Positions 209-39,477 are shown, counted from the first letter of the stretch. The stretch is DNA of 54,470 bases from Patescibacteria group bacterium (GCA_041651355.1 JBAZJK010000002.1:1-54470); one strand, 5' to 3'. The notes: a model not told the origin generated them from the letters alone. Program-made: numbers and translations.

Positions 209-3200
209 ATGAAGAATCGTTATCCAAAAGTTAGCATCATAACCGTAAATTTTAACGGCAGGAGATACCTCGGGGATTTTTTTAATTCCATAGCAAGGCT
301 GCGCTATCCCAAGAATAAATTAGAGATAATTTTAATTGATAACGTATCGGAAGACGGCTCGGTAGAGTTTGTGAGAAAGAGATACCCCAGGGTAAGAATA
401 ATCCAAAACGGTACTAATAACTACTGCAAAGCCGTTAACTTAGGAATAAAGGCAGCCCGTTCAGGATATATTGCGATAGCCAACAACGATACTAAATTAG
501 ACAAGGACTGGCTAGGAGAGTTGATAAGGGTCATCTCCAGCGATAAAAAGATTGCTGCGGCCGGAAGCAAGATACTGCATTGGAACGGCACATTGCAAAA
601 CGCCAGCCATTGTGAATTACCTAATTTTTACTGGGGGGAAAGGGGGGCCGGAAAGCATAGAGATAGCTATAATAATATTGATGAGGTACCCAGCTTATGC
701 GGGGCGGCAGTCTTGTATAGAAAAGAGGCTGTCTCGCGGGTCGGGTTTTTCGATGAGGATTTTGTTATATACGGAGAAGACGTAGATATATCTTTTAGGC
801 TGAGGCAGCTTGGTTATAAACTTATCTTTGTCCCCGATAGCGTTGTTTACCACAGGTTCCACGGCACAGCTACAGAGGAATTAGCGCGTTATTATATAGA
901 GAGAAACCGGCTGTTATTTTTGGCCAAACATTATCCCGAGAAGCTCACCAGTTCCTTGGTGGGCAGCGGTTATTTTACGGCAGAAGGTTCGGTTGACTCT
1001 TGCGGCAGGATATATTCTTTGTTCCCCGACATAATTATGAAGCTTATAAAGACCCACCCCCTAGACGTAGCCAGGAAGGCAATCTCAGACTTATTTGGAG
1101 AGGTAAGTAAAATTGTCAATTACGAAAACGACATATTAACGAAGGCATTGCGTAAAAACGAAGAAGAAAAAAACAAAGTAATACTCTCCCTAAAAGACGA
1201 AATTGAGCATGTCAATTATATCGTAGGGCAAAAAGAGGCCGAGGCGCGTTCTTTGAATAGCCAAATTACGGATATCGTGAAACGGAAAGAACAAGAGGCG
1301 CTTTCCTTAAAAGACGAAATTAAGCGCGTTGCTTCTCTTGCAGATCAGAAAGAATCCCAATCACAGTCCCTAAGAGACCAGTTAAAAGGCGTAAAGGATG
1401 AGCTTGAGAAGAAAACCGAAGAGGCGCTCTCTGGAGACGGACAGCTGATTGAGAAACTGGCAGAGCTCGGCGCCCTAAGAGACCAGTTAAAAGGCGTAAA
1501 GGATGAGCTTGCACGGAGAGCCGAAGAGACCCTGTCTAGGGGGGGGCAACTTATTGAAAAAGAGGCGGAAAACGGAGCGCTTAAAGATGAATTATCCCGT
1601 CTGGCGGAAAACCTTGCTGCTAGGCTGGTTAATCTGGAGGAGAATCAGGCGCAGTTGCTTGAAAAAGATTCTCGAATACAGCAATTGCAGATTGAGAAAG
1701 AAAAAATCGTTAAGGAGAAGGAACACGAACTGGATTGTTATAAAGAAGAATTGAGTAATATTCTGAATCAGTTACGCCGGAGGATGGATGAGGTCCTTAT
1801 CAAAGACAGCCAGATTATTGGAAAAGACGCGCAGATCGGGCAGCTCCGCATTGAAAAAGAACAACAGATAGGCCAGTTAAGAAGAGAGTTGGACGGAATT
1901 TATAACTCTGAAGGCTTCCGTTTAATATTGCGCCCCTTCTGGACAACTATATGGAATGCGAGGAAGGGCATCAAGGCAATGAAGATAAGATTAGGGAAGG
2001 CGATCTGGTTCGCCGTTACTTTGACCTTAGTGCCTTTATTTGTTTTTTTAGCAGCATCTTTTGTTTTTGAATATGCGGCATGGCTTATACTGAGGCCGCT
2101 GTTGAAAAATATCCTTCCCCGGAGGAGAGGCATTCAAAACAAAGACGCGGGAAAGATTAAAATAAGCGTAGTAATCCCGAATTACAATGGCACAGAGTTG
2201 CTTAAAGAATGTTTACCTTCTTTGTTTGCGGCTGAAGGGATTAATGAAGGGAAAAGCGAAGTCCTGGTAGTGGACGATGCCAGCACAGACGGTAGCGTTG
2301 CCTATATCAAGGAACACTTCCCGCAGGTAAAGCTGCTGATAAATAAGAGGAACAGGGGTTTTGGTTTCAGTTGCAACAGAGGCATTAAAGCGGCGAGCAA
2401 CGAGCTGGTGGTATTGCTGAATAATGATATTATTCTGACCAAGGGATTCCTGGAGCCTTTGGTCAGGCATTTCAAGAGGCAGGATGTGTTTGCGGCTACC
2501 CCCAAACTCTACGCCTGGGATAGAGAGACCTTTGCCTGGGGGATGCACATGGGCAATTTTAAGGACGGCTACGTAAGATTATGGAATGAGTCCGAAACAG
2601 GCAATGGCGACAGGCTGCGGCAGCCCGCACCTTCCGTATTTGCTATCGGCGGTGCGGCGGTGTTTCGCAAGTCCGATTTTATGTGGCTTGGGGGGTTTGA
2701 CAATATCTACAGACCGAACTGTTGGGAGGATATAGATATAGGTTACCGTGCCTGGAAGAGAGGGTTGAAGGTTATCTATGAACCGGGCAGCATCCTCTAT
2801 CATAAAGGACGGGCAACCCTGACCTATGAGCGCCCCAAGGAGATAAAAAACGAACTTCTTTTCACCTGGAAGAATATTACCGATAGCCGCATTTTAAAGG
2901 AACATTTTAATTTTCTTCCCTGGCACCTCTATCTTAACAGAATGAATTTCCTGAGAGGATTTTTATGGGCCTTGAACCATCTGCCTCAAACCCTACTGCA
3001 TCGCATTTTAGAAAGGAGGTTTGTCGTACATCCGCAAGATAGAAAAATTTTTAACAGCATCACGCTTTATTATAATAATTTCATAAATAGAGGCTCCCGG
3101 CATCTTAGCGAAAGCAAGCCGACGGTGCTATTGGTTTCACGGTTTCTGCCATATCCGCTTAATGCGGGCGGCAAGATAAGAATCCATAACCTAGTTAAAT

Positions 3201-5428
3201 CGCTGTCTGAAAAATATAATTTTATACTCCTCAGTCTCATTGACCATAAGGACGAATTGGCGTATATACCAAAAATCAAAGAATTGTTTAGCGAGGTTTA
3301 TACGGTATTGGCAAAATCCCCTCTGGATTTGAATTTTTCCTCACGTTTATTTTACCCGGAGTTGTATAAAATAGCCTATAGCTATAGCCGGGAGCTGGTG
3401 GAGAAGCTCAAGGAGCTTGAAGATACGAAAGCAGCGGATATTATACACATAGAAACAAATGAATTATTATACCTGGTTGACTATGTCAAGTCCGCCCCTA
3501 TAGTTTATACCGAGCACGATATAAGCATCCTTTCGCTGCGCAAATCTTATTATAAGAATAAAGGCAACCCGGCGAAGTCCTTTGTTGACCATTTAAAAAA
3601 GGTTAATTTCCACCACCGACAGATTAAAAAAACAGACAGGGTCATTAGCCTCTCAAGAGAGGATGATGCCGTGCTGAGGGGGCTTTTTCCCAAGAGCGCC
3701 ATTACCCTGATACCGACCGGGGTAGATCTGGGGCATTTTTCTTCCAGACGGTCTGCGGGAAAAATAAATAAATTGATATTCGTAGGGCACTATCTTCATT
3801 ATCCCAACGAGGACGCTGTGCTTTATTTTTCGAAGAAGATACTCCCGATCATCAAAAAAAGCGTTCCGGACGTTCAACTGCTGATTGTAGGTTCGAATCC
3901 GACGCCAGCTGTAGAGGCCATCGCCAAGGAAGACAGCGTAAGGCTTATAGGAGAGGTGCCTGATGTTAAGCCTTACCTGGAGGAAGCCGCCGTTTTTGTG
4001 AATGCCATACGCATAAGTGCGGGGATAAAAGGAAAAGTGCTGGAGGCGATGGCTTGCGGGGTGCCGGTGGTTTCTACCAGGAACGGGTCCTCCGGTATCG
4101 ATGCTAGGCCGGAAAAGGATATTCTGCTTGCGGAGAAACCGAAAGAATTCGCAAGACAGGTGATTCGCCTTTTAAGCGACCCACCCCTGAGAGAGCGGAT
4201 CGTAGCCAACGCTAAGCGCCTGGTTCAAGATAGATATGATTGGAAAGGAAGCGCGGATAAGCTCGATGGTGTATATAGGGGGCTATCATTTTTCCAAAAG
4301 GATATCTTCTCCTGTTTGTCTCAAGGTGCAACCGAAGAAGTCGTAAATTACACGAATAATTTCATTGAGCAAAAGATAGCGCAGACAGAAGGCGATCTGG
4401 GAATGGTCTCTGACGGCCCAGAAGAATTGCACATAGAATTGACATATAGCTGTAACAGCAAGTGTATTATGTGCGACCTATGGGATTATAACAAAAGAAT
4501 GCCGTCATCTCCGGGCAAGGAACTTTCTCTTGCAGAGATTAGGAAGTTCGTAGATGAATCCCGTCTCTTGCAGAAAACAAAAACCGTCGTGCTCTCTGGA
4601 GGGGAGCCGTTCATGCGAAACGATATAGCAGAGCTCTGCGGTTTTTTCACCAGAAAATTTCCAGACGGCTCAATCGGCATATTAACCAATGGAATGGCAA
4701 CCGACACGATAGTAGAAAAATCCAAGGAGGTCTTGGACAGGTTTTCTCCCAGATCTCTATGGCTGGGAAGTTCTCTGGACGGAATAGGAAAAACCCATGA
4801 TAAAATCCGGGGGGCCGACGGCGCATTTTTGCGTCTTTGCCAAACAATCAGCCGCTGCAAAAAAGAGTTGCCGGGGGTGGATTTATCGTTGACCTTTACC
4901 CTTACTCCGTATAACGTAGACCAGCTTGTGCCGGCAAAACAGTTTGCTGACGACGAAGGCGTAAATTTCTTTGCTCAATTTGTCGTTCCCAAGTCATCAA
5001 GACAGGAGTTTAACTGGACGCCCCAGGAGCTGAGTCTCGCAGAAAAAGAAATCGGACGCATAATGGAAGGGATATCCGATAAGATGGGTAACAATGCCAT
5101 CTGCGGCGTTAAAGGCATGCAGGATAAAGGGCTGATGGCTCAGCTTTATTTCTGGTCGCACCTTGTCAAATATCAGATTAACCCCCAGAGGTTTTTTAAG
5201 AAATGCGTTGCCGGTTATAGATTCGCGATGCTGAATCCTTACGGAGACTTATTTTTCTGCCCAACCCATAAAGATAATTCTGTCGGGAATCTAAGAGAGA
5301 ATAAGTTTGATTATCTCTGGACCTGCGATAAGGCGGAGCAACTAAGGAGATTTATTTCCAGCGGGAATTGCCATTGCTGGCTGGTTTGCATTCTTTTCCC
5401 GGTATTGGATAAGGTCTTGAGCAATTAA
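209..5428 (+). CDS. 1739-aa multidomain protein: GT2 - coiled coil - hydrophobic anchor - GT2 - GT4 - radical SAM/SPASM-like
   Basis: GT2 #1: VSIITVNFN, IDNVSEDGS, ANNDT, GEDVD. EKLQ-rich heptad region about nt 1130-1910 ending IYNSEGFRL. Hydrophobic stretch IWFAVTLTLVPLFVFLAASFVF. GT2 #2: ISVVIPNYNG, VDDASTDGS, LNNDI, WEDID. GT4: IPTGVD, FVGHYLHYPNEDA, KVLEAMACGVPVVST. Radical SAM: CNSKCIMC (4451-4474), GGEP, C-terminal Cys cluster. GGAGG RBS upstream. Confidence 0.9.
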   Translation: MKNRYPKVSIITVNFNGRRYLGDFFNSIARLRYPKNKLEIILIDNVSEDGSVEFVRKRYPRVRIIQNGTNNYCKAVNLGIKAARSGYIAIANNDTKLDKDWLGELIRVISSDKKIAAAGSKILHWNGTLQNASHCELPNFYWGERGAGKHRDSYNNIDEVPSLCGAAVLYRKEAVSRVGFFDEDFVIYGEDVDISFRLRQLGYKLIFVPDSVVYHRFHGTATEELARYYIERNRLLFLAKHYPEKLTSSLVGSGYFTAEGSVDSCGRIYSLFPDIIMKLIKTHPLDVARKAISDLFGEVSKIVNYENDILTKALRKNEEEKNKVILSLKDEIEHVNYIVGQKEAEARSLNSQITDIVKRKEQEALSLKDEIKRVASLADQKESQSQSLRDQLKGVKDELEKKTEEALSGDGQLIEKLAELGALRDQLKGVKDELARRAEETLSRGGQLIEKEAENGALKDELSRLAENLAARLVNLEENQAQLLEKDSRIQQLQIEKEKIVKEKEHELDCYKEELSNILNQLRRRMDEVLIKDSQIIGKDAQIGQLRIEKEQQIGQLRRELDGIYNSEGFRLILRPFWTTIWNARKGIKAMKIRLGKAIWFAVTLTLVPLFVFLAASFVFEYAAWLILRPLLKNILPRRRGIQNKDAGKIKISVVIPNYNGTELLKECLPSLFAAEGINEGKSEVLVVDDASTDGSVAYIKEHFPQVKLLINKRNRGFGFSCNRGIKAASNELVVLLNNDIILTKGFLEPLVRHFKRQDVFAATPKLYAWDRETFAWGMHMGNFKDGYVRLWNESETGNGDRLRQPAPSVFAIGGAAVFRKSDFMWLGGFDNIYRPNCWEDIDIGYRAWKRGLKVIYEPGSILYHKGRATLTYERPKEIKNELLFTWKNITDSRILKEHFNFLPWHLYLNRMNFLRGFLWALNHLPQTLLHRILERRFVVHPQDRKIFNSITLYYNNFINRGSRHLSESKPTVLLVSRFLPYPLNAGGKIRIHNLVKSLSEKYNFILLSLIDHKDELAYIPKIKELFSEVYTVLAKSPLDLNFSSRLFYPELYKIAYSYSRELVEKLKELEDTKAADIIHIETNELLYLVDYVKSAPIVYTEHDISILSLRKSYYKNKGNPAKSFVDHLKKVNFHHRQIKKTDRVISLSREDDAVLRGLFPKSAITLIPTGVDLGHFSSRRSAGKINKLIFVGHYLHYPNEDAVLYFSKKILPIIKKSVPDVQLLIVGSNPTPAVEAIAKEDSVRLIGEVPDVKPYLEEAAVFVNAIRISAGIKGKVLEAMACGVPVVSTRNGSSGIDARPEKDILLAEKPKEFARQVIRLLSDPPLRERIVANAKRLVQDRYDWKGSADKLDGVYRGLSFFQKDIFSCLSQGATEEVVNYTNNFIEQKIAQTEGDLGMVSDGPEELHIELTYSCNSKCIMCDLWDYNKRMPSSPGKELSLAEIRKFVDESRLLQKTKTVVLSGGEPFMRNDIAELCGFFTRKFPDGSIGILTNGMATDTIVEKSKEVLDRFSPRSLWLGSSLDGIGKTHDKIRGADGAFLRLCQTISRCKKELPGVDLSLTFTLTPYNVDQLVPAKQFADDEGVNFFAQFVVPKSSRQEFNWTPQELSLAEKEIGRIMEGISDKMGNNAICGVKGMQDKGLMAQLYFWSHLVKYQINPQRFFKKCVAGYRFAMLNPYGDLFFCPTHKDNSVGNLRENKFDYLWTCDKAEQLRRFISSGNCHCWLVCILFPVLDKVLSN
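1368..1511 (+). repeat. 39-bp exact direct repeat (1368-1406 and 1473-1511) inside the coiled coil, spacing 105 nt = 35 aa
   Basis: ccctaagagaccagttaaaaggcgtaaaggatgagcttg occurs twice (LRDQLKGVKDEL). A looser SLKDEI repeat lies at about 1185 and 1302. Confidence 0.9.
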
Positions 5429-5439
5429 TCCTTAAGGAT

Positions 5440-6603
5440 ATGGTTGAAGCCCAAGAAAAGAGATCAAAGCGGATTGCGGAGCTTAAGCGGAATATCATAA
5501 ACACCGCAACCAAAAGAGCGCAGGAGGCATCCTATCCTATCGCCGCCCGCAATAAAAATTTGCTTCTGAATGACTTTGAATATGCAACAGGCAAGATAGC
5601 CCTAGAGTCTTCTCCCGAGGGTATCGGTATAGGGACGCATTACGCCTGCAATGGGAAATGCGTTTTTTGTTTAGGCGGAAAACCCCGGATTTTCTCGCTT
5701 GAGAGATATAGGGAATTTTTTGAGCCGAGACTGGAAAACGTTTTATCAAGAGCAAGCTATGTGAGCTTCTGCGGTTTCGGAGAGTTGTTTTTAATGCCGC
5801 GGGTAGAGGAATTCATGGATTATGTAAATAAAAAAATTCCATGGGCTAATAAGATATATACTACAAACGGAGCGCCTTTAGCCAATGATAAGATATTAAA
5901 TTTACTTACCCAGAGCCAATCCGCAGTGCAGATATCTCTTCACGCCTCTCATAGAGAGCTCCACAGGGCCTTGACGAAATTAGACTCCTTTGACGAGATT
6001 GTAGCCAGAATAAGACAAATAATCTCTATGCGTAAGTCAAAAGAGCGCCCCAGCGTGATTCTGGTTTTTCTTATCAACAGCCTGAATGTGGAGAATCTTG
6101 CGGATTTTGTGGAGTTTGCCCATCGCCTGAGGGTAGACGAGGTGCGATGTAATTATATGACGGCATTCCATCACTCCCAGCTAAAGCTTTCATGTTTCTT
6201 TAAACAAGAGTTAACCAACCGGAGCCTGGAGGAGGCCGAAGAACGCGCTGCTAAGTTGGATTTGATTTTGAAACTGCCTCCGAGATTCGGCCGGGGTAGT
6301 CAAGGAACAGGGAGCCTCCTGTGCGCCGAACCCTGGAAATACATCTATGTGGAGAATGAATCTTCGGTCCTGCCGTGTTGTTATGCAGGCAGTCACTTCG
6401 GCTATTTGGACAGGATGGACTTTCAGACTATCTGGAACGGCTCAAGTTATAGGCAGTTGCGCAAGTCCTTGGTAGAGGGGCCGCCCCATAAATGGTGCAA
6501 ACATTGCCAGAGATACCGCGCAGAAAATATAAACGACATCCGTTCGCACATAAACTTCCGCCCCGGAGGGCTTTTAAAGATCTTGAAAGGGTATAAATTA
6601 TGA
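5440..6603 (+). CDS. Radical SAM/SPASM-domain protein (module A)
   Basis: CNGKCVFC, GFGE, TTNG, SLHAS. C-terminal CAEPW...PCC...IWNG...CKHC. Confidence 0.9.
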   Translation: MVEAQEKRSKRIAELKRNIINTATKRAQEASYPIAARNKNLLLNDFEYATGKIALESSPEGIGIGTHYACNGKCVFCLGGKPRIFSLERYREFFEPRLENVLSRASYVSFCGFGELFLMPRVEEFMDYVNKKIPWANKIYTTNGAPLANDKILNLLTQSQSAVQISLHASHRELHRALTKLDSFDEIVARIRQIISMRKSKERPSVILVFLINSLNVENLADFVEFAHRLRVDEVRCNYMTAFHHSQLKLSCFFKQELTNRSLEEAEERAAKLDLILKLPPRFGRGSQGTGSLLCAEPWKYIYVENESSVLPCCYAGSHFGYLDRMDFQTIWNGSSYRQLRKSLVEGPPHKWCKHCQRYRAENINDIRSHINFRPGGLLKILKGYKL

Positions 6604-9287: not shown

Positions 9288-9338
9288 AGGACACGCCGTT
9301 TATCTAAATAACCCCGGTTTTGATACAGAAGCAATATT

Positions 9339-12940: not shown

Positions 12941-12967
12941 AGAAAACTCGAGCCCCGGGTAGCCATC

Positions 12968-14845: not shown

Positions 14846-14852
14846 GATATTA

Positions 14853-23743: not shown

Positions 23744-23750
23744 CTCTCGT

Positions 23751-29717: not shown

Positions 29718-31168
29718 AAACTCTGTTTATGTTTAAAAGCGAGAATTTTCTAGCCCCCATCGGATTATGCACCATTTCAGCGGTTGCAAAAAAATACGGC
29801 CATCAGACGTATCTGTGCGAGACGAATTCAGAGAATACAATGCAGCGCATAGCCGATATCAAGCCCGATGTTATCTGTTATAGCTCCTCTACCGGAGAGG
29901 CCAAGCATTATTTTCGGTTAAATACCGAGATCAAAAATGAATTCCCGCAGGTATTTACGATTATGGGCGGGCCCCACCCCACATTTTACCCTGAGGTTAT
30001 CTCTGAGGAGAAAGGCCTGGATGCACTTTGCATCGGGGACGGCGAGATAGCTTTTGTAAGCTTGCTTTCGGCGCTCTCCAGAAAGGAATCCATCGATGCC
30101 ATCCCGGGGATTGTCACCAGGAATAATAGAAACATATTTACGGCCGGCGAGCTTACGGAAAACCTGGATATGCTGCCGCATCCAGATTTTTCATTAATTT
30201 ACGATAATACCCCTTTGGGCAAATACCCCCTCAAGAGTTTTATTGCCTCCAGAGGCTGTTCTTACGATTGTACATATTGTTTTAATAAGGCCTGGCGTAA
30301 TATCTATGTCGGCAAAGGAAAGATGGTGCGGCGCAATAGCGTAGATTACGTTATTGACCAGATTAAGCATGTGCAAGAGAAGTGGCCTTTAAGTTGCATT
30401 AAGTTCTATGATGACATTTTTTCGTACACCGCAGACGAATGGCTTGAGGAATTTTCCAAGAAATACAAGGAACGCGTGAACCTGCCGTTTTTTATCCTGA
30501 CGAGAGCAGATCTGCTTACGGAAGAAATGGTAAAATTACTCAAATACGCCGGCTGCCGCACAATCAGCATGTCAATAGAATCGGGGGATCAAGGCATCAG
30601 GGCCCAGATGCTCGGGCGGCGCATGTCCGATAAACAGATTGTTAACGCCCATCGCCTGTGCGATAGATACGGGATTTACACCTTTGCTAACTGCATATTA
30701 GGCCTGCCGGGGACATCCGTTGGCGATGATATTAAATCGGTCGATCTGGCAATTAAGGCTAAAGCTACCTGGTCGGAATTCCCGATATTTTATCCATACC
30801 CAAAAACAGAACTCGGCAGGTATGCAATAGAGAAAGGGTTTTATAAGCCAGTTTATAAACAGATGCATACCTCCTATCAATATAGATCGCTTCTCAGCTG
30901 TTTTTCCGATAGAGAAAAAAACGCCCAGATGAATTTATCCGTATTGGGAGCGGTGGCCGTAGTTTTTCCTTATTTCCGGAGCCTGATTGTACGTTATTTA
31001 ATATATCTGCCCCACAATCCAGTTTTTACATTGATTTATCATTTGGCAAAGACACATACATTCAGAAAAAAGATATATGTTACCAAAACGAATTTTTTAA
31101 GCTCGTTGCATATATTCCTGAGAAGCTTGAGGCAGGAGTGGTTTAGGCACGAGGATAAAAACGGATAG
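29714..31168 (+). CDS. Cobalamin-binding radical SAM protein (class B methylase-like)
   Basis: PIGL, GGPHPT, GDGE, SRGCSYDCTYC, DDIF, SIESG, ILGLPG. Confidence 0.9.
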   Translation: MKTLFMFKSENFLAPIGLCTISAVAKKYGHQTYLCETNSENTMQRIADIKPDVICYSSSTGEAKHYFRLNTEIKNEFPQVFTIMGGPHPTFYPEVISEEKGLDALCIGDGEIAFVSLLSALSRKESIDAIPGIVTRNNRNIFTAGELTENLDMLPHPDFSLIYDNTPLGKYPLKSFIASRGCSYDCTYCFNKAWRNIYVGKGKMVRRNSVDYVIDQIKHVQEKWPLSCIKFYDDIFSYTADEWLEEFSKKYKERVNLPFFILTRADLLTEEMVKLLKYAGCRTISMSIESGDQGIRAQMLGRRMSDKQIVNAHRLCDRYGIYTFANCILGLPGTSVGDDIKSVDLAIKAKATWSEFPIFYPYPKTELGRYAIEKGFYKPVYKQMHTSYQYRSLLSCFSDREKNAQMNLSVLGAVAVVFPYFRSLIVRYLIYLPHNPVFTLIYHLAKTHTFRKKIYVTKTNFLSSLHIFLRSLRQEWFRHEDKNG

Positions 31169-31178
31169 AATTATTACG

Positions 31179-32099
31179 GTGAGAAATAAAAAACAGGCAT
31201 GCGCTATTAATGCAAGACAAGAAATGCTTAAAAGGCTGCAGTTGCCCTTAAGATATAATTATATAGCCTGTTTCTTGACCTTGGATTGCAACTTTAATTG
31301 TGATTACTGCATTAACTGGTTTAACGGCAGGAAGAAATATAAAGAAACAGGCATTTCCGGTAAAGAGTGGGTAGAGGGCCTAAATCGTCTCGATTGCCCC
31401 GACGACCTACCCGTTACCATCCAAGGCGGAGAACCGGCCATGCATCCGGATTTTATATGGATAATCAAAAATATCAGGATGGGTTTAAACATCGACATCC
31501 TAACCAATCTCTCATTTAATGTCGAGGAATTCATTAAGAGCGTTAATCCTCTCCGCTTGCGCAGGGAGGCGCCTTATCCCAGCATCAGGGTAAGCTATCA
31601 TCCTTCCCATGCCGATTTAGACGTACTTATGACAAAGGTTTTAAAGATGCAGCATGCCGGGTTTTCCGTAGGGATTTTCGGTATTTTGCACCCCGGCTTC
31701 GAAGAAAATATTCTAAAGGCGCAACAACGCTGCAGAGAGGCGGGAATAGACTTTAGGACAAAAGAGTTCTTGGGTGAGTTTAGGGGGCGCATATACGGCA
31801 CTTATCTGTATCCCGAAGCCATAGGAGGCAGTCGGCAGAAGAGTTGTTTTTGCAGAACGTCCGAACTTATTATCGGACCGGAAGGAAACATTTACCGGTG
31901 TCACCATGACCTCTATGAAGATTCTTCTAAGATAGGCAACCTTTTAGACCCGAACTTCGAAATTATAGATATATTTAGAGAATGTAGCCGGTTCGGAGAA
32001 TGCAATCCTTGCGATATGAAGGTTAAGACGGACCGTTTTCAAGTTTATGGATATACTGCGGTTGAGGTAAAAGATATCCAGGGTAAAGGGGCGCAGTAA
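31179..32099 (+). CDS. Radical SAM protein with short C-terminal Cys domain (distantly related to module B)
   Basis: GTG start. CNFNCDYC, QGGEP, LTNL, VSYHP, CFCR...RC...CNPC. Confidence 0.88.
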   Translation: MRNKKQACAINARQEMLKRLQLPLRYNYIACFLTLDCNFNCDYCINWFNGRKKYKETGISGKEWVEGLNRLDCPDDLPVTIQGGEPAMHPDFIWIIKNIRMGLNIDILTNLSFNVEEFIKSVNPLRLRREAPYPSIRVSYHPSHADLDVLMTKVLKMQHAGFSVGIFGILHPGFEENILKAQQRCREAGIDFRTKEFLGEFRGRIYGTYLYPEAIGGSRQKSCFCRTSELIIGPEGNIYRCHHDLYEDSSKIGNLLDPNFEIIDIFRECSRFGECNPCDMKVKTDRFQVYGYTAVEVKDIQGKGAQ

Positions 32100-32111: not shown

Positions 32112-33875
32112 ATGACGCATAGGCTCAAATCAATAAATAAGAATGGCATAGCAGTTCTTTTGCTTCTGGCGGTATTTACCTATCTTTTTTCGGTTTATGA
32201 TATAAACTTTTACGGCCCTGATGACGCCATATATTTTGCTTATATTTCAAGCGTAGCCGAAGACGGGGATTTAAACGCCGCCGACGACATAGGCCAGCGC
32301 TATCCTTATTATCTTGATTCTGGCAAGATAGGGGTGTCCGGGACGTATAACCTGCCGGATTTCCATAACCACGGCGGGGTAGTTCTCTGGGTTCCTTTTT
32401 ACGCCTACGCCAAGTTTATATATCGGGCCGCCTCAAAATTTAAAGTATCGAGTTTAAGCAGTGAAGGTTTATCGCGGATTATCAGGTGCGCCCTGTCATT
32501 CAGTACGGTTATCTTTGGATTTTGCGCCGTCATCCTTACCTATTTTTTATGCCGCAGTTTTTTTAATAAAAGTAATTCCTTGTTTTCTATTGCAGCAATA
32601 ACTTTAGGGACCCCCTATCTTTATTTTATGTTGGCAGAGCCCGGAAATGCGAATATACTGGCGTCTTTGCTTTCGGTTGTTTCTATCTTGTTTTGCTGTT
32701 ATTTAGTCAACGGAAGAAAGTCGGATTGGTTCTTGTACGGACTATTTTTTTCAATCTGCATAGCGGTTAAACTGGATTTATGGTTTCAACTGATATTCAT
32801 CGGCTTGTTCTTTAGCGCTTTGATTTTATTAAAACAGGCGCCGCCTAGAAACATATTATATTTTATCTTAGGCATCTTGCCGGGCGCGGCATTGATTTTT
32901 ATAAATAACTATATAAAATACGGAACGTTCCATATAGGTGAACTTGGAGTTCTAAATCTCAGAGAATCTTATTTTTTTGAGCAGCTATTTTCATCTTACC
33001 GCGGGATTTTTTATACCTCTCCCATCATTTACCTTTGCTTCTTAGGGGGCATCTTTATAATCGCGGATTTAGTAAAGAATAAGATTAACGCAGCAGGAGG
33101 CCGGTTTGATAGCAAGGGTAGAGAGGTAGACGCCGATTTGTTTTTTGTTATTCTGATTTTCTATGTCCTTATCAAGATATTTGTTATGTCAAAAAATTAT
33201 GCCTGGGGAGGAGGAACTACCTCCGGCAGGCTGTTGCTTACAGAATTTCCTGTATTCGTACTGTTATTTAGCAGGGTATTAGAAATTAAAAATAGACGCT
33301 TGCGTTACGCAATCATTATTGCAGTTATCCCGTTCATCGCCTGGAATCTCCTTGCGCTTTCCGAATATATGACGGGGGTCGACTTTAAATACATTGTTAG
33401 GATGCCTCCGCTAAACATACGGATACCGATTATCAAAAGCGCTTTTTACGCCTTGTTTTATCCCAAGGAACTATATATAAAAATTCAATCGTGCTTTTCT
33501 TTGTTGATAATTGTTTTGGCCGGAATTTTTTATTTAGCTCCTATTTTATCAAGAGATAGGTCCTTGTCTTTTACAAGGCATAAGGCCGTGATGACAAGAT
33601 TGCCTACGCCGCTTATTATATTCACAGTTTGTCTGTTTACGGGCTATACCGCTGTAACCTCTTCAAATATAATAAATAACTCGCGCAACTTAAGATTGCT
33701 AAAGAAGGACGGTTTCTTTGAAAAGACCAAGATAATAGCTCCGTATGAATTCGAAAAAGAGGAAAATATAGGCTCGATGAACGATATGATAGAATACTTC
33801 AGATTAAAGGGCGACCCGGAAAGGGCGGAAGGCATCAAGAGGCATAAAGAAGAAATCTATGGCAGCCCTAGATAA
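32112..33875 (+). CDS. Polytopic membrane protein, probable GT-C-fold glycosyltransferase
   Basis: GPDDAIYFAY acidic motif after TM1, GIFYTSPI, WGGG...GRLL. Many TM segments. Confidence 0.68.
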   Translation: MTHRLKSINKNGIAVLLLLAVFTYLFSVYDINFYGPDDAIYFAYISSVAEDGDLNAADDIGQRYPYYLDSGKIGVSGTYNLPDFHNHGGVVLWVPFYAYAKFIYRAASKFKVSSLSSEGLSRIIRCALSFSTVIFGFCAVILTYFLCRSFFNKSNSLFSIAAITLGTPYLYFMLAEPGNANILASLLSVVSILFCCYLVNGRKSDWFLYGLFFSICIAVKLDLWFQLIFIGLFFSALILLKQAPPRNILYFILGILPGAALIFINNYIKYGTFHIGELGVLNLRESYFFEQLFSSYRGIFYTSPIIYLCFLGGIFIIADLVKNKINAAGGRFDSKGREVDADLFFVILIFYVLIKIFVMSKNYAWGGGTTSGRLLLTEFPVFVLLFSRVLEIKNRRLRYAIIIAVIPFIAWNLLALSEYMTGVDFKYIVRMPPLNIRIPIIKSAFYALFYPKELYIKIQSCFSLLIIVLAGIFYLAPILSRDRSLSFTRHKAVMTRLPTPLIIFTVCLFTGYTAVTSSNIINNSRNLRLLKKDGFFEKTKIIAPYEFEKEENIGSMNDMIEYFRLKGDPERAEGIKRHKEEIYGSPR

Positions 33876-34932
33876 GTTCAAAATAGACAGTCACAAGCTC
33901 ATTTATCATGTCCCTTCTCTGTATGCCTGGTTAAGGGGAGAAGATATCTATCCCATTTACATGGAGATAGGTCTTTATGGAGGTTGTAACCACCGCTGCA
34001 TATTTTGCGCTTTTGACTTCTTGGAATATAAACCCCTGAGCCTTGATGCGGACGTGGCAAAAAGGTTTATATGCATGGCTGGCAAGAAAGGGACGAAATC
34101 CATTCTCTATTCGGGGGAAGGAGAACCGCTTCTTCATAAGGATATCGCGGATATTATTGCTTTTACAAAGAAAAGCGGTATTGATGCAGCCCTTGTGACC
34201 AATGGGGTTATGCTTGATGAGGAAAAGGCCGAAAAAACCTTAAGGCACCTGACATGGATGAAGGTAAGCTTAGATGCAGGCACCAAAGATACATATGCAC
34301 TTATACACGGGACAAAAAAGGAAGACTTTGCTAAGGTAATCGGGAACCTTGAAAATGCCGTCAGGATTAAGAGAAAAAACAAATACGGTTGCAGCATAGG
34401 CGCACAGTATCTCTTATTGCCGCAGAATTACAAAGAGGTTAAAACAGCAACTAAGGTACTGCGCGATGCGGGGATAGATTATATGGTCATAAAACCATAT
34501 TCTCAACATCCCTTTAGCAAAAATAGAATAGACTCCAGATTAAATCTTAAGAGGCTGGACTGTTTAGAAAAAGAGCTTGAGAAATGCTCGAATAACCGCT
34601 TTCAGATAATATTCCGCCGTCACACCATGGAAAGGCTCAAGGCAGACAGGCCGTATAAATATTGTATCGGTGCGCCGTTTACGGCGCTTATAACTACGGA
34701 GGGTAACATTTATCCCTGCAACATTTTTTTAGGGAAAAATGAATTTTCACTCGGGAATATTTACGAAAATAACCTTACTGAAATCTGGAAAGGGAAAAGA
34801 CGCAAGGCGGTAATGGATTTTATCTATAAAAGATGGAAGATATCCAAATGCAGAAAGGCCTGCAGGATGGATGCAATTAACACTTATCTCTGGGAGCTTA
34901 GACATCCTGACAGCCATATTAATTTCATATAA
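33859..34932 (+). CDS. Radical SAM/SPASM-like protein (module C)
   Basis: DSHKLIYH...PIYMEIGLYGGCNHRCIFC, GEGEP, VTNG, SLDAG. CIGAPF...PC...IW...CRKACR. Confidence 0.9.
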   Translation: MAALDKFKIDSHKLIYHVPSLYAWLRGEDIYPIYMEIGLYGGCNHRCIFCAFDFLEYKPLSLDADVAKRFICMAGKKGTKSILYSGEGEPLLHKDIADIIAFTKKSGIDAALVTNGVMLDEEKAEKTLRHLTWMKVSLDAGTKDTYALIHGTKKEDFAKVIGNLENAVRIKRKNKYGCSIGAQYLLLPQNYKEVKTATKVLRDAGIDYMVIKPYSQHPFSKNRIDSRLNLKRLDCLEKELEKCSNNRFQIIFRRHTMERLKADRPYKYCIGAPFTALITTEGNIYPCNIFLGKNEFSLGNIYENNLTEIWKGKRRKAVMDFIYKRWKISKCRKACRMDAINTYLWELRHPDSHINFI

Positions 34933-34938
34933 CAGCCG

Positions 34939-35628
34939 ATGATGACTGACATAGCTGTTTCAATTTGCGTGCCTGCGTTTAACGAAGAAAAAACCCTGAG
35001 GGGAGCCGTTGAGGATTTATTAGAGACTCTGCACTCGAAGGTCGGGGGATTAGATATTATTATCGTTGATGACGGGAGCACGGATTCTACCACGCAGGTT
35101 TCCGTTCAGCTAATGAGGATGCATAAAAATATCAGGGTTATCCGGCATGCAAAAAGAATGGGCATCGGGGCAAGCTACAGAGATGCCTTAAAAATAGCCC
35201 GGGGGGATTATTTTACATGGTTCCCCGCAGACCATGAGAATTCAGCTCAGGAATTTATCCTCTGCCTGCCATATTTAAAAAAAGGCGCGATAGCAACATG
35301 TTATCATCGCGGACAGGACCCCCGGACATATTTGCGGCGTTTTATTTCCCGCGGTTATACCGTTCTTTTAAATATCGTTTTCCGCTTAAATCTAAAATAT
35401 TACAACGGCTTGACAATATTCCCGCTATCGGCCTTGTCTCCGTCCGTTTCTCTTTGCGACGGCTTCTTTTTTACCGCCGAAAATATCATCAAGGCAGTCC
35501 GGAGAGGTTACAAGGTAATAGAACTACCGGCTCCGTTAAAGGGGCGCGCATCCGGAAGCTCCAGTGCGTTGACATTTTCATCTTTCAGACAGGCGATAAG
35601 CGATATCCTGCGTATTTTAAGGGGATAA
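34939..35628 (+). CDS. GT2, polyprenol-phosphate glycosyltransferase (DPM1-like)
   Basis: VSICVPAFNEE, VDDGSTD, GIGASYRDA, FPADHE, R...SSA. Short single domain. Confidence 0.85.
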   Translation: MMTDIAVSICVPAFNEEKTLRGAVEDLLETLHSKVGGLDIIIVDDGSTDSTTQVSVQLMRMHKNIRVIRHAKRMGIGASYRDALKIARGDYFTWFPADHENSAQEFILCLPYLKKGAIATCYHRGQDPRTYLRRFISRGYTVLLNIVFRLNLKYYNGLTIFPLSALSPSVSLCDGFFFTAENIIKAVRRGYKVIELPAPLKGRASGSSSALTFSSFRQAISDILRILRG

Positions 35629-35639
35629 GGATACATCGG

Positions 35640-36701
35640 ATGGGTTTTAAGAGTTCAATACGCTACCTTAGAGTTATAGGCGCACTGTTAAAATCTAATT
35701 TTTTTAAACAGCGCTTACCCATTATCACGATCCTTGGGGTTACTAACCGCTGCAATCTTAGCTGTTGGTATTGTTATGGAGAGCATCCTTACCGTAGCCG
35801 ATGTTGCGATTTCGGCACCGGTGAACTCCTTGAGATAGTAAGGGTTATGCGACAACTAGGCACGCAGCTATTACAACTGCAGGGAGGGGAGCCTCTCCTC
35901 CGCGAAGACTTGGATATCGTTATCGATGAGGCCCATCGTTTTGGGATGGCCTGCGACATGGTCACTAACGGCACTTTGGTTTTGAAGAAAACAGATATAG
36001 TCAGAAGGTTGGATAGAATCTGTATCAGTTTAGACGGGAGGCCGGGTCTGAACGATGCCAACCGCGGAGAAGGCGCATATGGGCGGGCCCTGGAAGGGGT
36101 AGAGTTTGCTTGTTCTTGCGGTTTAGCGGTTCGCCTTAGCGCTGTATTGACCGACAAAACCGCTGCTGAGGACATCGATTGGCTGATAGGTTTAGCGCGC
36201 AGGTATAAAATAACGGTTAATTTTTCACCGCCGTTTTATTTCCGCCCGCAGTTTAGTAAGAATGAAATGACTCCGCACCTCATGGCCGATGTCAAGCTAA
36301 AGTCTCTCCTCCAACATATTATATATCGCAAGAGAGAAAAAGCGCCCATACAATTTAGCCTTGCCAGTTATGGCCTCGCCTTAAACTGGCCGTTTACATA
36401 TAAAAAACGCACCGCAACCCAACAGGAGCTTCCTGCCGGTACCGGATATCCTAAATGCTACCACGGTGACCGTGTTGTATTTATTGACAGTGACGGTAGC
36501 GTTTATCCGTGTTGTAATTTTTGGGGCAGGGCGTATGGCAACATTCGCAACGACGGCATTAAAGCAGCGGTCGGGAATATAAGCAGGGATAATTGCAGAG
36601 CTTGCTATATACCGGCTTATATAGACAGGAACCTTATCTTTGGAATAAATTTTAATGCATGCGGGAATTATGTAAAATACATTATAAGGGGACAGATATG
36701 A
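35640..36701 (+). CDS. Radical SAM protein; start moved from 35298 to ATG 35640
   Basis: GVTNRCNLSCWYC, GGEPLL, VTNG, ISLDG, CYHG...PC...CRAC. The longer ORF overlaps the upstream GT2 by 330 nt. Confidence 0.88.
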   Translation: MGFKSSIRYLRVIGALLKSNFFKQRLPIITILGVTNRCNLSCWYCYGEHPYRSRCCDFGTGELLEIVRVMRQLGTQLLQLQGGEPLLREDLDIVIDEAHRFGMACDMVTNGTLVLKKTDIVRRLDRICISLDGRPGLNDANRGEGAYGRALEGVEFACSCGLAVRLSAVLTDKTAAEDIDWLIGLARRYKITVNFSPPFYFRPQFSKNEMTPHLMADVKLKSLLQHIIYRKREKAPIQFSLASYGLALNWPFTYKKRTATQQELPAGTGYPKCYHGDRVVFIDSDGSVYPCCNFWGRAYGNIRNDGIKAAVGNISRDNCRACYIPAYIDRNLIFGINFNACGNYVKYIIRGQI

Positions 36702-38098
36702 TTGATAAAGGCAATTGGTATAAACTGGAAGACGCAGAAAAGCTACCGCCTCGGGCGAAGAACCTTTTAATGCGCAGATACGTAAATCCGGGTATGGTGA
36801 AGTTATTCGGGTTGCTGGGTTTTGAGGAGGTGTGGGCTTCCTCTGCAGAAGGGATGTACATTACCCTAAACGATGGAAGGCGCATATTGGATATGACGGG
36901 AGGTAACGGCGTCCTGGGGTTAGGGCATAATCATCCCAGGATATTGTCTGTTCGCGAAAAGATAGCCAGGGAAAAAAGACTGGAAATCTGTAAGGCCTTT
37001 CTCTCTCCCTATGTCGCTGCTTTGGCAGCTGATATCTCGAGTCTCTTGCCGGAAGATTTAGACTATTCATTTTTTTGCAATAGCGGTGCCGAAGCAGTGG
37101 AGGGCGCATTAAAAACAGCCGAGAAGTGTTACGGGGGCTCGCGTAAAGGTTTGATATACACGGATCACTCCTTTCACGGCAAGACGCATGCGGCCATGTC
37201 CGTATCAAGCCTTGATGAATCACGCAGCTATTTTCAATTGTTAGAGCAGTGTTACCGGGTGCCCTACGGTAGCATCAACGCCTTTAAGGAAATGATAGAG
37301 AAGCATAGACAGGATGTCTGTGCCTTTATAGTTGAGGCAATTCACGGAACACGCATTATTTTCCCTCCGGAGGGATATATGCGGGAAGTGCGCGACATCT
37401 GTACGAAAAACGAGGTGGTGCTGATACTCGATGAGATATATACGGGATTCGGAAGAACGGGATACTGGTTTGCGTTTGAGGCCGAAGGAATTGTCCCAGA
37501 TATAGTATGTTACTCTAAGGCCTTCGGAGGGGGCAAGGCGAGTATAGCCGGTTATACTGTGCGACGGCCGATATTCTTACGAGCCTACGGTAGCACAAAA
37601 GACTGCATGATGCATTCCTCTACTTTTAGCGGTATGACAGAAGAATGCGCTACCGCGATCGAGGCGTTAAACATATTCAAAGAAGAGGGATTGATAGAAA
37701 AAAGCAGGAAACTCGGCGGGTACCTCGGAGAGCGCCTGTCCGCCCTTAAAATAAAATACCCGGAGCGCGTTAATGACGTGAGGGGTAGAGGTCTATTGTG
37801 GGGAATCGAGCTTAAACCCGTTTTTGGGTTAAATAGGATATCTAAGAATATTTTTTCTGAAGATAATCAGACATTGGCTAGCCTAACCGGAGCGATTGTT
37901 TTGGCAGCCCTGTTCGGCCGGTATAATCTTCTGGCCTATCTGGGATTTACCAGGCGTAACCTCATTGTTTTTTCTCCCGCCCTGATCGTCAACAGGGAAG
38001 AGTTAGACAAAGCAGTTTCCGTCCTGGAAGAGGTCCTTAAGACCCCCTGGCCGGTTCTTATAAGTTCATTTTTAACAAAGCGAACCATAAAGCCATGA
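36698..38098 (+). CDS. Class III PLP-dependent aminotransferase (PatA/HpnO/acetylornithine-AT-like); start moved to ATG 36698
   Basis: LGLGHNHP, NSGAEAVEGALK, SFHGKT, FIVEAIHG, LILDEIYTGFGRTG, PDIVCYSKAFGGG (PLP Lys), RGRGL. ATGA overlap with the upstream stop. Confidence 0.92.
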   Translation: MIDKGNWYKLEDAEKLPPRAKNLLMRRYVNPGMVKLFGLLGFEEVWASSAEGMYITLNDGRRILDMTGGNGVLGLGHNHPRILSVREKIAREKRLEICKAFLSPYVAALAADISSLLPEDLDYSFFCNSGAEAVEGALKTAEKCYGGSRKGLIYTDHSFHGKTHAAMSVSSLDESRSYFQLLEQCYRVPYGSINAFKEMIEKHRQDVCAFIVEAIHGTRIIFPPEGYMREVRDICTKNEVVLILDEIYTGFGRTGYWFAFEAEGIVPDIVCYSKAFGGGKASIAGYTVRRPIFLRAYGSTKDCMMHSSTFSGMTEECATAIEALNIFKEEGLIEKSRKLGGYLGERLSALKIKYPERVNDVRGRGLLWGIELKPVFGLNRISKNIFSEDNQTLASLTGAIVLAALFGRYNLLAYLGFTRRNLIVFSPALIVNREELDKAVSVLEEVLKTPWPVLISSFLTKRTIKP

Positions 38099-39477
38099 AG
38101 GTACTGTTGACAGTCCCTGCCGTTGATACTTGCTATGAGCGCGTCCCGAGCATTGGGCTTATGAACCTCTACCTTATAGGCAAGAGGCTTGGGTGCGATA
38201 TTGAATTATTGGATATATCCGACCTGCCTTATCAGAGAGGACTACGCAGGCTTTTGGCAAAGCGATATGATGTGATCGGCATTTCGTGCAACTTTACTAA
38301 CGCCGCCCCCTACTGTATGCAATATGCCAGAGAGATAAAAGAAAAATACCCCGATACGCTCGTCATCTCCGGAGGTAATCATGCCACCCTCGTTCCGGAA
38401 GACCTTTTATTTAACAAATACGATTATATTCTCTATGGGGAAGGGGAGTTGGTCTTTGCAGATTTTATAGGCAGGATTCTAAAGGGCAAGCCCGCAGATG
38501 ATATGAGCGGGATCTTCTATTTAAAGGGGGGCAAAATAATAAGGAACGCCCCCCGCCAGCCCATAGAGGACCTGGATACCCTGCCGTTTAATGATTATTC
38601 TGATTTTGACCTGGAGTATTATTTCCGGCGTTCAGGCCTGCGCTACATAAGCATGGAAACCTCTCGCGGTTGTATCTATAATTGCTCGTTTTGCTCTACC
38701 GTGAAGATGTGGGGGCATAGATATAGACATAAGAGCCCGGAGAGGGTGCTTAGCGAATTCAGGGTTGCCGGGAAGCTAGGACTTGACTTCATATTTGTAG
38801 AAGACGATGACGCGGCACTTGACGAAGATAACCTGCGCAGCTTCTGCGGACTGCTGGCTCGCGAAGATATAGGCGTGCCCTGGGGGATGGGGGTAGGCTC
38901 CGCGTCCATCAAGAAAGAATCTACGTTTGACCTTATAGCGAAAGCAGGATGCGTTAAGGTTAATGTAAACATAGAATCGGCTAATCCGCGCATTTTGAAG
39001 GAATACCGCAAGCCTTATGCCATAGAAGATAACAGGGCCTTATGCGAAAATTTAAAGAAGAGGAAAATCCTAATTCATAATCATGGTATAATTGGCTTGC
39101 CTGGCGAAAGTATAAAAGAAACGCTTAATACCTATTTTTACCTTATCAAGACATCTCCGCTTTGGCATATCAGTATCTTGGAGCCGAGGCCCGGATCCGA
39201 TTATTGGAGAAGATGGGATAAAAAGGGAGACGTTAGGCAATATAGGCTTTTTGGCAAGGCCAATGTTATACTAGGCCGAAAGAAATTAGCTAGTTATTTA
39301 TTATACAGGATTTTTGCTCTATTTTATTTTTTGAATCCCGCCCGAGTTTACAAGGCGCTCTTCGGAGCTGATAAAGGCACAAGATACAGTTATCGTGTGC
39401 AGTATTATGTCGCTTACAGAACCGTAAAGGCGAACCTTTTTAACCTTTTTTCGGCTAAGATCAACGATGTTAAATAG
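38095..39477 (+). CDS. Cobalamin-binding radical SAM protein (class B methylase-like)
   Basis: PSIGL, GISC, SGGNHAT, GEGE, SRGCIYNCSFC, IES, IIGLPGE. Confidence 0.9.
   Translation: MKVLLTVPAVDTCYERVPSIGLMNLYLIGKRLGCDIELLDISDLPYQRGLRRLLAKRYDVIGISCNFTNAAPYCMQYAREIKEKYPDTLVISGGNHATLVPEDLLFNKYDYILYGEGELVFADFIGRILKGKPADDMSGIFYLKGGKIIRNAPRQPIEDLDTLPFNDYSDFDLEYYFRRSGLRYISMETSRGCIYNCSFCSTVKMWGHRYRHKSPERVLSEFRVAGKLGLDFIFVEDDDAALDEDNLRSFCGLLAREDIGVPWGMGVGSASIKKESTFDLIAKAGCVKVNVNIESANPRILKEYRKPYAIEDNRALCENLKKRKILIHNHGIIGLPGESIKETLNTYFYLIKTSPLWHISILEPRPGSDYWRRWDKKGDVRQYRLFGKANVILGRKKLASYLLYRIFALFYFLNPARVYKALFGADKGTRYSYRVQYYVAYRTVKANLFNLFSAKINDVK

Follow-up and report, generated by a model that had tools for sequence, protein, structure and literature searches.

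The 54,470-nucleotide contig JBAZJK010000002.1 (GCA_041651355.1; positions 1 to 54470, hereafter the window), assigned to a Patescibacteria metagenome-assembled genome (MAG), is Omnitrophota DNA and carries a putative ATP-binding cassette (ABC) transporter-dependent glycan locus. Its gene content, its synteny with other Omnitrophota, and recurrent gene fusions show that radical S-adenosylmethionine (SAM) genes are a conserved, integral, and partly fused component of this predicted locus. We favor, at a probability of about 55%, a reading in which the locus would make an O-antigen-like, ABC-exported glycan that is edited by cytoplasmic radical SAM enzymes before export, at the lipid-linked level and within the polymerase complex. 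Radical SAM tailoring of the glycan at some level, whether on lipid-linked intermediates or on monomers, is probable when both readings are taken together.

Nineteen radical SAM domains in 15 co-oriented genes

The window contains 36 long open reading frames (ORFs), every one on the + strand, with gaps between genes on that strand of at most ~140 nt and all minus-strand ORFs lying inside genes. A first-pass annotation, made from the sequence, had counted 18 CX3CX2C motifs and one CX3CX9C in 15 genes, and a regular-expression recount returned exactly these numbers in co-oriented genes starting at 209, 5440, 6600, 9339, 12113, 12968, 14853, 16366, 18646, 20543, 29714, 31179, 33859, 35640, and 38095; genes 6600, 9339, 12968, and 18646 carry two motifs each. 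The hidden Markov model scan proposed at that stage placed PF04055 (Radical_SAM) above the Pfam gathering cut-off in 15/15 proteins, with 19 stretches in total and two each in the same four double-motif proteins, while the SPASM domain (PF13186) exceeded its 21.5-bit cut-off in nine. The CX3CX2C motif occurs 9.4 times per 10,000 aa in the window versus 0.44 times on the main chromosome contig of the bin, an enrichment of ~21-fold that is well beyond chance. Four B12-binding domains had also been claimed; against the PF02310 cut-off of 32.1 bits, those of 29714 (65.8 bits) and 38095 (55.2 bits) were strong and that of 9339 (33.7 bits) was marginal, whereas that of 6600 (28.5 bits) fell below it. 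By hydropathy, none of the radical SAM proteins has a hydrophobic or transmembrane (TM) segment. The radical SAM array and the gene fragment that precedes it are as follows, with the basis of each assignment in brackets; family letters are those defined below, and GT denotes glycosyltransferase.

1-182, + strand: 3′ end of wzt (last ~60 codons), encoding an ABC ATPase with a C-terminal Wzt_C carbohydrate-binding module (identity with contig L012)
209-5428, + strand: gene 1, a 1739-aa assembly protein with GT2, predicted coiled coil, membrane segment, GT2, GT4, and radical SAM/SPASM modules (Pfam, sequence, hydropathy)
5440-6603, + strand: radical SAM/SPASM, family B (Pfam; 57% orthologs in L015 and L017)
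6600-9287, + strand: 895-aa double radical SAM, B12-type N half (E) and SPASM C half (C) (Pfam, motif, comparison)
9339-12113, + strand: 924-aa double radical SAM, B12-type N half (E) and SPASM C half (B) (Pfam, motif, comparison)
12113-15692, + strand: three genes (12113-12940, 12968-14845, 14853-15692) with four ~275-aa twitch-type domains, family A, STM4011-like
16366-17424, + strand: radical SAM/SPASM, family D (Pfam, comparison)
18646-20523, + strand: 625-aa double radical SAM, family A twitch and family C SPASM with CX3CX9C (Pfam, motif)
20543-21628, + strand: radical SAM/SPASM, family B (Pfam, comparison)
29714-32099, + strand: B12-binding-domain radical SAM (484 aa, F) and small 306-aa radical SAM (distant A) (Pfam, NCBIfam, comparison)
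33859-39477, + strand: sub-module of radical SAM/SPASM (D), short GT2 (229 aa), radical SAM/SPASM, class-III aminotransferase, and B12-domain radical SAM (Pfam, NCBIfam)

The array follows wzm-wzt across Omnitrophota

No complete ABC-transporter gene lies within the window itself. An 81-kb contig from another assembly (L012) is 100% identical to window positions 1-15428, with the gene 1 protein matching letter for letter, and extends it upstream: GT4, a WecA/MraY-family transferase, a flavin adenine dinucleotide (FAD) oxidoreductase, Wzm (PF01061), and Wzt precede gene 1 in this order. Wzt is a 569-aa protein with ABC_tran (PF00005) and Wzt_C (PF14524) domains, encoded up to 27 nt before gene 1, and the upstream PF00953 protein (332 aa) scored 101.6 bits against TIGR02380 (WecA), below the 326-bit cut-off of that model. 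Downstream, a 93-kb contig (L013) extends past the window with two more radical SAM genes, PMT_2, WbqC, a U32-family protein, and a Wzy_C/WaaL-like gene, the last lying on the opposite strand just downstream of the locus. With this continuation, the locus spans at least ~68 kb and includes at least 21 radical SAM domains.

The order of the array (giant GT-radical SAM protein, B, E+C, E+B, and A repeats) is the same in two metagenome contigs (L015 and L016) and in the Omnitrophota genomes G061 (L017) and G216, in both of which it directly follows wzm-wzt. In G216, the GT4, GT9, and GT2 trio also lies close together (38 to 46% identity), in the order GT4, GT9, TPR protein, GT2. The E+C protein of L015 corresponds to two separate genes in G061, A and B are joined in one protein in G216, and a Methyltransf_24 domain is fused to B in L015; because fusion and fission of the same domains vary in this way between genomes, the radical SAM domains appear to act together. 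In more distant genomes (L029, L030, and L032, from G206, G125, and G092), proteins of 1284 to 1917 aa directly follow wzt, each with three or four radical SAM domains, such as a B12-type domain combined with three family-D SPASM units.

Recurrence beside wzm/wzt had been set beforehand as a check, and the wider sample agreed with the conserved array. Across 201 Omnitrophota genomes, a family-E homolog (E < 1e-60) was present in 29, and Wzt was encoded in 29/29. Where both genes were on one contig (21/29), the family-E gene was always on the same strand as the wzt homolog (21/21) and 2 to 19 kb from it; in the other 8/29 the two were on different contigs. Given one to three wzt copies per ~2-Mb genome, we estimate the chance of such proximity at a few per cent. 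Rather than mapping to nonglycan pathways away from GT and wzt genes, the homologs thus showed wzt linkage and fusion to the polymerase, with no rival pathway genes alongside.

Radical SAM genes are numerous in these genomes, with 91 PF04055 matches in 1.8-Mb G216 and 56 in 1.6-Mb G061. Besides the array syntenic with the window, these matches cluster in several other long arrays (G216, C1:283-405 kb; G061, C42:124-209 kb and C15:33-78 kb). Separately, many Omnitrophota (G206:C2:199118, G223:C60:2187, G211:C178:29488, and others) encode the Wzt ATPase domain within open frames of 900 to 1200 aa, and two such frames reach 2746 and 4452 aa, with the exporter ATPase fused to large extra regions.

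The window is Omnitrophota DNA in a Patescibacteria bin

The window is the entire contig C2 of an 11-contig, 1.07-Mb bin (G000) whose main contig, C1, is 881 kb. Composition, homologs, collinear flanks, and disjoint occurrence in other metagenomes agree, and C2 is therefore Omnitrophota DNA mis-binned into a Patescibacteria MAG. Its tetranucleotide distance to the C1 mean was 0.0167, compared with 0.0065 ± 0.0023 (maximum 0.0113) for same-sized chunks of C1. The 924-aa protein encoded at 9339 had 506 database homologs, full-length at up to 83% identity, and every named one was from 'Candidatus Omnitrophota/Omnitrophica', as was also the case for gene 1. No true homolog of the 924-aa protein was found in 36 same-family Patescibacteria genomes (0/36), and a genome-collection search with it was uninformative, returning distant relatives only (22 to 28% identity), in Bacteroidales, Faecalibacterium, and an unclassified MAG. 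The flank PAC2-HAD-HypE-AbpE-GT4-WecA-FAD oxidoreductase-Wzm-Wzt-giant GT is gene-for-gene collinear with contig C34 of the Omnitrophota MAG G061 (40 to 63% identity); the PAC2 gene was absent from seven Patescibacteria genomes, the bin included.

In sediment and oil-facility metagenomes (runs X2 and X5), the assembled C2 segment has a depth of 23-28x and 13x, and the longer contigs showed few differences there. On the same runs, a C1 test segment (L022) had a depth of 0 in nearly every bin, with short fragments only, and the run index listed none of X2-X8 for either of two C1 segments (L022 and L023). In the source landfill run, C2 has a depth of ~47x versus 47-51x for C1, and G+C content is 42.5% versus 42.3%; this equality of G+C and source-run depth explains the binning error. 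LpxC was found in G061, G216, G099, and G188, and none was found in bin G000. On this gene content, the host is a predicted lipopolysaccharide (LPS)-making Omnitrophota bacterium.

It is highly improbable that C2 truly belongs to the Patescibacteria genome, whether acquired recently from Omnitrophota by horizontal transfer or carried as an extrachromosomal element. The shared G+C content and near-equal source-run depth would suit such an origin, as would the B12-type radical SAMs of order-level Patescibacteria (30 to 34% identity) and the radical-SAM-rich glycan loci that these bacteria have of their own. However, the identical longer contig runs on into housekeeping genes collinear with an Omnitrophota chromosome, and C2 reaches 13-28x in two other habitats where the C1 segment is essentially without depth. 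C2 is also a tetranucleotide outlier, and the GT9 in the locus and the WaaL-like gene downstream are LPS-type genes, whereas G000 lacks LpxC.

Contigs C3 to C11 of the bin are likewise tetranucleotide outliers relative to C1 (0.0125 to 0.0335), although the shortest are too small to weigh much, and these contigs may also be foreign. C2 makes up 5% of a 'high-quality' MAG (98% complete, 0.16% contamination), yet comes from another phylum, which is a practical warning: a metabolic reading of this MAG would wrongly give a candidate phyla radiation bacterium LPS-type glycan genes and ~20 Fe-S enzymes.

Gene 1 has a putative polymerase-terminator layout linked to a radical SAM domain

The gene 1 protein comprises a GT2 module (residues 1-240), a heptad-rich E/K/L/Q region (~300-565), a ~30-residue hydrophobic segment (~597-630), a second GT2 (650-920), a GT4 (975-1355), and a radical SAM/SPASM domain (1400-1739). 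Of 53 homologs, at 42 to 85% identity, 52 likewise have the radical SAM domain joined to GT modules. In ABC-transporter-dependent O-antigen pathways, a coiled-coil ruler lies between a distal terminating module and polymerizing GT modules, the Wzt carbohydrate-binding module admits only terminated chains in polymerase-terminator pathways, and a coiled-coil protein is the mark of the polymerase-terminator strategy in the WbbB/WbdD/ORF6-O7 model (PMC11231755). By analogy, gene 1 appears to match the 'terminator, coiled-coil ruler, polymerase' layout of the WbbB/WbdD type, with a predicted terminator role for its N-terminal module.

The likeness to WbbB (Klebsiella pneumoniae O12), WbdD/WbdA (Escherichia coli O9a), and ORF6 (K. 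pneumoniae O7) extends beyond the single-protein layout of an N-end catalytic module, a long predicted coiled coil, a segment for membrane association, and a pair of C-end GT modules. Wzm and a Wzt with its carbohydrate-binding module adjoin the polymerase, a candidate WecA-type initiator lies within the Omnitrophota locus, and the host is predicted to make LPS; Wzm/Wzt also adjoin the giant polymerase gene in G061, G099, G188, and G216. In contrast to WbbB and WbdD, the putative terminator of gene 1 is a GT2 rather than a GT99 or a kinase-methyltransferase, and, unlike in all three systems, a radical SAM/SPASM domain follows the GT4 and 18 further radical SAM domains follow gene 1. No sequence similarity of gene 1 to WbbB or WbdD was detectable.

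At least six old radical SAM families include a conserved motif variant

All-against-all comparison sorted the 19 domains into the following families.

Family A, twitch, STM4011-like: 12113, both halves of 12968, 14853, N half of 18646, and distantly 31179 (pairwise 33-40%)
Family B, SPASM: 5440, 20543, and C half of 9339 (pairwise 36-40%)
Family C, SPASM: C halves of 6600 and 18646 (31%)
Family D, SPASM: 16366 and 33859 (28%)
Family E, B12-type: N halves of 6600 and 9339 (40%)
Family F, B12-domain: 29714 and 38095 (25%)
Singletons, radical SAM/SPASM: the gene 1 domain and 35640

As judged from sequence divergence, these paralog families, at least six in number, are old. Recent paralog amplification was ruled out: the radical SAM paralogs are only 22 to 40% identical to one another, whereas those compared have their own orthologs in other genomes at 57 to 73% identity.

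Family A has an invariant CX3CX2C and four invariant C-terminal Cys residues. Its AlphaFold2 (AF2) model (predicted local distance difference test [pLDDT] 85.4) matches the folds of anSME, SuiB, BlsE, MoaA, viperin, SpeY, EpeE, and PqqE. The model of the 9339 N half, representing family E (pLDDT 86.5), matches OxsB, TsrM, MgmA, CysS, TokK, AprD4, and MiaB, with E values of 1e-16 to 1e-21 for the first five. These modeled matches confirm the enzyme class and do not fix the reaction. Scores against NF038073 (STM4011) for 12113, 12968, 14853, and 18646 were 69.6 to 120.7 bits versus a 200-bit cut-off, indicating relatives rather than members of that family. PDB sequence searches gave weak, generic matches only; for gene 5440, BtrN was the sole match, and a weak one (1e-4).

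An N-terminal Rossmann-type B12-binding domain precedes the radical SAM core, according to both PF02310 and the fold of the 9339 N half. A B12-like domain is present in AprD4 and MiaB, which are not known to use cobalamin. Because two of the four B12 matches are marginal and the fold also fits AprD4 and MiaB, a cobalamin requirement of the locus is uncertain.

In the second domain of 18646 (residues 317-331, window 19594-19638), the third Cys is displaced by an insertion, giving CNLRCTSSKEAFSRC in place of CX3CX2C. The variant CX3C-[TS]-x-S-x(5-8)-C (CX3CX9C or CX3CX11C) is kept in homologs at 39 to 76% identity. A degenerate 19th domain was therefore rejected; as judged from these alignments, CX3CX9C is a conserved variant and not decay. 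Whether the conserved CX3CX9-11C SPASM subfamily represents a new cluster-binding variant is a tentative suggestion, and a doubtful one when taken jointly with the editing of a lipid-linked polymer. Some members of the CX3CX9-11C subfamily are fused to 2-oxoglutarate (2OG)-Fe(II) oxygenase domains.

Neighboring glycan genes and predicted topology

The co-oriented partners named by the first-pass annotation were present on the + strand, namely GT2, GT4, GT9, two PMT_2-type GT-C, GH5, SGNH, three SGNH-TPR, a class-III aminotransferase, and a split transketolase, with the exception that Wzt is represented in the window by its last 182 nt only. Domain scans of the window genes found no short-chain dehydrogenase/reductase (SDR) epimerase or dehydratase, no nucleotidyltransferase, and no DegT, and likewise no lipid or cofactor pathway genes within the window. 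Hydropathy identified six polytopic proteins (two PMT_2, two 11-TM with TPR, one YfhO-like, and one of no recognized family) and a single N-terminal anchor on each of the GH5, SGNH, and SGNH-TPR proteins. The genes surrounding the radical SAM array are as follows.

15720-16349, + strand: 209-aa protein with two hydrophobic segments, no Cys, and no Pfam or NCBIfam match
17432-18649, + strand: N-anchored SGNH/GDSL hydrolase or acyl-esterase (Pfam, hydropathy)
21649-25115, + strand: GT9 (heptosyltransferase family), GT2, and GT4 (Pfam)
25164-29717, + strand: polytopic GT-C (PMT_2), N-anchored GH5 glycosidase, and second GT-C (PMT_2) (Pfam, hydropathy)
32112-33875, + strand: 587-aa protein with ~12 hydrophobic segments and no family match (hydropathy)
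39467-43070, + strand: two tandem GT-C-like 11-TM proteins with C-terminal TPR and a weak GtrII match
43211-48083, + strand: three N-anchored SGNH-TPR proteins (Pfam, hydropathy)
48122-50698, + strand: split transketolase-like thiamine diphosphate enzyme (N and C subunits) and short GT2 (247 aa)
50823-54469, + strand: 952-aa 13-TM YfhO-like protein and TPR protein cut off by the contig end (Pfam, hydropathy)

The 209-aa protein has a 31% homolog in the same neighborhood of G216, and the SGNH/GDSL protein encoded at 17432 is probably periplasmic. The tandem 11-TM proteins are 94.6% identical to each other, indicating a recent duplication, and L012 breaks at these genes in the other assembly. 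The three SGNH-TPR genes have near-identical 3′ ends of ~150 nt. At window positions 53693-54470, the contig ends inside a TPR gene made of ~100-nt near-repeats; the other assembly, 99.4% identical over 6.4 kb, differs at this 3′ end, where repeats align at several offsets, which makes the window end an assembly break in a repeat.

Upstream of wzm, L012 encodes a 437-aa FAD amine-oxidase/PRK07208-like protein (6129-7442) with no match to the GLF (UDP-galactopyranose mutase) domain, and an FAD amine-oxidase-like gene also lies between WecA and Wzm in G061, G206, G216, and G240. Downstream, a Peptidase_U32-family gene (L013, 11479-12522) adjoins WbqC and another B12-domain radical SAM. The U32 family includes the O2-independent hydroxylases UbiU/V, TrhP, and RlhA, and by family membership this gene hints at anaerobic hydroxylation in the same pathway.

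A model for radical SAM editing before export

In the favored reading, a WecA-type enzyme would prime undecaprenyl phosphate, and the gene 1 protein would polymerize the chain on the cytoplasmic face and set its length. Up to 19 soluble cytoplasmic radical SAM domains would edit sugars through 5′-deoxyadenosyl-radical chemistry before export, candidate reactions being C-methylation, epimerization, dehydration or deoxygenation, oxidation, and C-C bond formation. Working in a complex with the polymerase, these domains would most likely act on the growing polymer while it is lipid-linked, or on sugars carried by a lipid. Wzm-Wzt would export the finished chain, with the carbohydrate-binding module of Wzt checking the chain end, and the six polytopic proteins, at least five of them GT-C-like, would decorate or trim it in the periplasm together with SGNH, SGNH-TPR, and GH5 proteins. 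The GT-C-like proteins would draw on polyprenyl-phosphate sugars made by the short GT2s.

Radical SAM enzymes require SAM and a low-potential reductant, and because all radical SAM proteins here are predicted to be soluble, their action is placed before export, whether the substrate is a nucleotide sugar, a polyprenyl-linked sugar, or the lipid-linked polymer. The lipid-linked level is favored because of the GT4-radical SAM fusion, the multidomain fusions that follow wzt, and the lack of ordinary monomer-tailoring genes in the window. The first-pass annotation had proposed an ABC-exported surface glycan modified by radical SAM enzymes; wzt linkage, recurrence of the array, and the 52/53 fusion support this proposal, and we infer radical chemistry on sugars.

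Several points weigh against editing at the lipid-linked level. Fusion to the polymerase would also fit action on a nucleoside diphosphate (NDP)-sugar donor, 19 domains are hard to fit onto a simple repeat unit, and the best-known role of SPASM enzymes is peptide maturation. The fold matches of families A and E are generic, several of the matched enzymes acting on peptides, nucleotides, or small molecules, and no radical SAM protein of the window reached a curated NCBIfam cut-off, so no reaction is assignable by homology. The coiled coil of gene 1 was judged from sequence composition only.

A serious, if unlikely, alternative is that the radical SAM enzymes act upstream of polymerization, converting nucleotide sugars or polyprenyl-phosphate monosaccharides to deoxy, amino, C-methyl, or branched monomers and standing in for the missing SDR and DegT enzymes. 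Analogous monomer conversions are performed in antibiotic pathways by BtrN, DesII, AprD4, GenK, and BlsE. The window lacks conventional nucleotide-sugar tailoring genes, the family A fold resembles BlsE and the nucleotide-binding radical SAMs viperin and MoaA, and the only PDB sequence match of gene 5440 is BtrN. The transketolase-like pair and the class-III aminotransferase would suit monomer chemistry, and the sub-module at 33859-39477, with GT-C, resembles an Arn-type cassette in which a carrier-linked sugar is modified and then transferred. However, the covalent link between a radical SAM domain and the polymerase GT4 persists in homologs at 42 to 85% identity, the multi-radical-SAM proteins of 1284 to 1917 aa right after wzt are more suggestive of an assembly-line complex than of a soluble monomer pathway, and 19 domains exceed any known sugar monomer pathway.

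It is improbable that the array makes a separate product (ribosomal peptide, lipid, or cofactor) and merely happens to lie in a glycan locus. The best partial NCBIfam matches of the SPASM and B12-type proteins would point that way, being C-methyltransferases of ribosomally synthesized and posttranslationally modified peptides (RiPPs), tungsten-cofactor and metalloenzyme maturases, HpnJ, and BchE, as would the fold matches to anSME, SuiB, PqqE, and EpeE, but all of these NCBIfam scores are far under their cut-offs. Moreover, the gaps of at most ~140 nt leave no space for a precursor-peptide gene, lipid and cofactor pathway genes are absent from the window, one radical SAM domain is fused to GT modules, and the position downstream of wzt is consistent across genomes. 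A RiPP cluster was rejected, with no precursor gene or room for one and with scores short of the RiPP maturase cut-offs, as was lipid or hopanoid tailoring, with no lipid genes and with HpnJ/HpnR scores far below cut-off.

A more specific form of the lipid-linked reading is a postpolymerization editing line, in which a polymerase-tethered complex of ~20 radical SAM domains would act on a lipid-linked, O-antigen-like polymer at the cytoplasmic face. We regard this proposal, drawn by analogy, as possible but rather doubtful, together with the reactions that it would entail, namely C-methylation, epimerization, deoxygenation, or cross-linking of sugar residues. Its closest parallel would be polytheonamide, a peptide rewritten by PoyB/C/D.

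Sub-module 33859-39477, followed by the tandem GT-C-like genes, looks, by analogy, like a cassette in which a carrier-linked sugar would be modified and then transferred in the periplasm. As in GtrA/GtrB/GtrC, CsbB/YfhO, and ArnC/ArnT, the short GT2s (229 and 247 aa) adjoin polytopic GT-C, YfhO-like, or PMT_2 proteins, and, as in Arn, an aminotransferase lies within the same sub-module. Unlike in the three-component systems, no GtrA-type flippase was recognized here and the short GT2 has radical SAM genes on either side; the aminotransferase of the sub-module belongs to class III, not to the DegT/ArnB type of Arn.

Known radical SAM chemistry and implications for the Omnitrophota envelope

Antibiotic pathways use sugar-acting radical SAM enzymes (BtrN, SpeY, BlsE, DesII, AprD4, GenK/GenD1, and OxsB) of the same classes as those of the window, that is, twitch, SPASM, and B12-domain enzymes, and AF2 models place OxsB and AprD4 among the top matches of family E and BlsE and SpeY among those of family A. 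BtrN and SpeY are twitch dehydrogenases, BlsE is a decarboxylase, AprD4 is a diol dehydratase with a B12-like domain, and GenK/GenD1 and OxsB are cobalamin-dependent. Sequence identity between these enzymes and the window proteins is 12 to 20%, with no equivalog match. The known enzymes act singly or paired on small-molecule aminoglycoside or nucleoside intermediates, whereas the Omnitrophota locus has 19 domains in a primary envelope-glycan locus, many of them fused to one another and one to the polymerase. To our knowledge, carbohydrate-acting radical SAM enzymes are known almost only from antibiotic pathways, with one or two per cluster.

We found no description of radical-SAM-rich Wzm/Wzt loci in the literature, and in two Omnitrophota preprints radical SAM appears only as a Pfam count in giant proteins. 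The export and polymerization logic and the enzyme classes are known; the locus differs from known systems in bringing them together for a primary envelope glycan, in its domain count and fusions, and in recurring across a phylum. Should the editing line prove true, radical SAM tailoring would be seen for the first time on a primary polysaccharide of the cell envelope. Clonable test objects are offered by the double radical SAM proteins, the fusion of GT4 with radical SAM, and the CX3CX9-11C subfamily. A wide field of anaerobic glycan chemistry thus appears to lie unexplored in the envelope of ultra-small bacteria, some of them predatory or dependent on hosts. The unusual surface sugars that the locus predicts might influence how cells attach to one another, how phages recognize them, and the biomarker chemistry of anoxic habitats.

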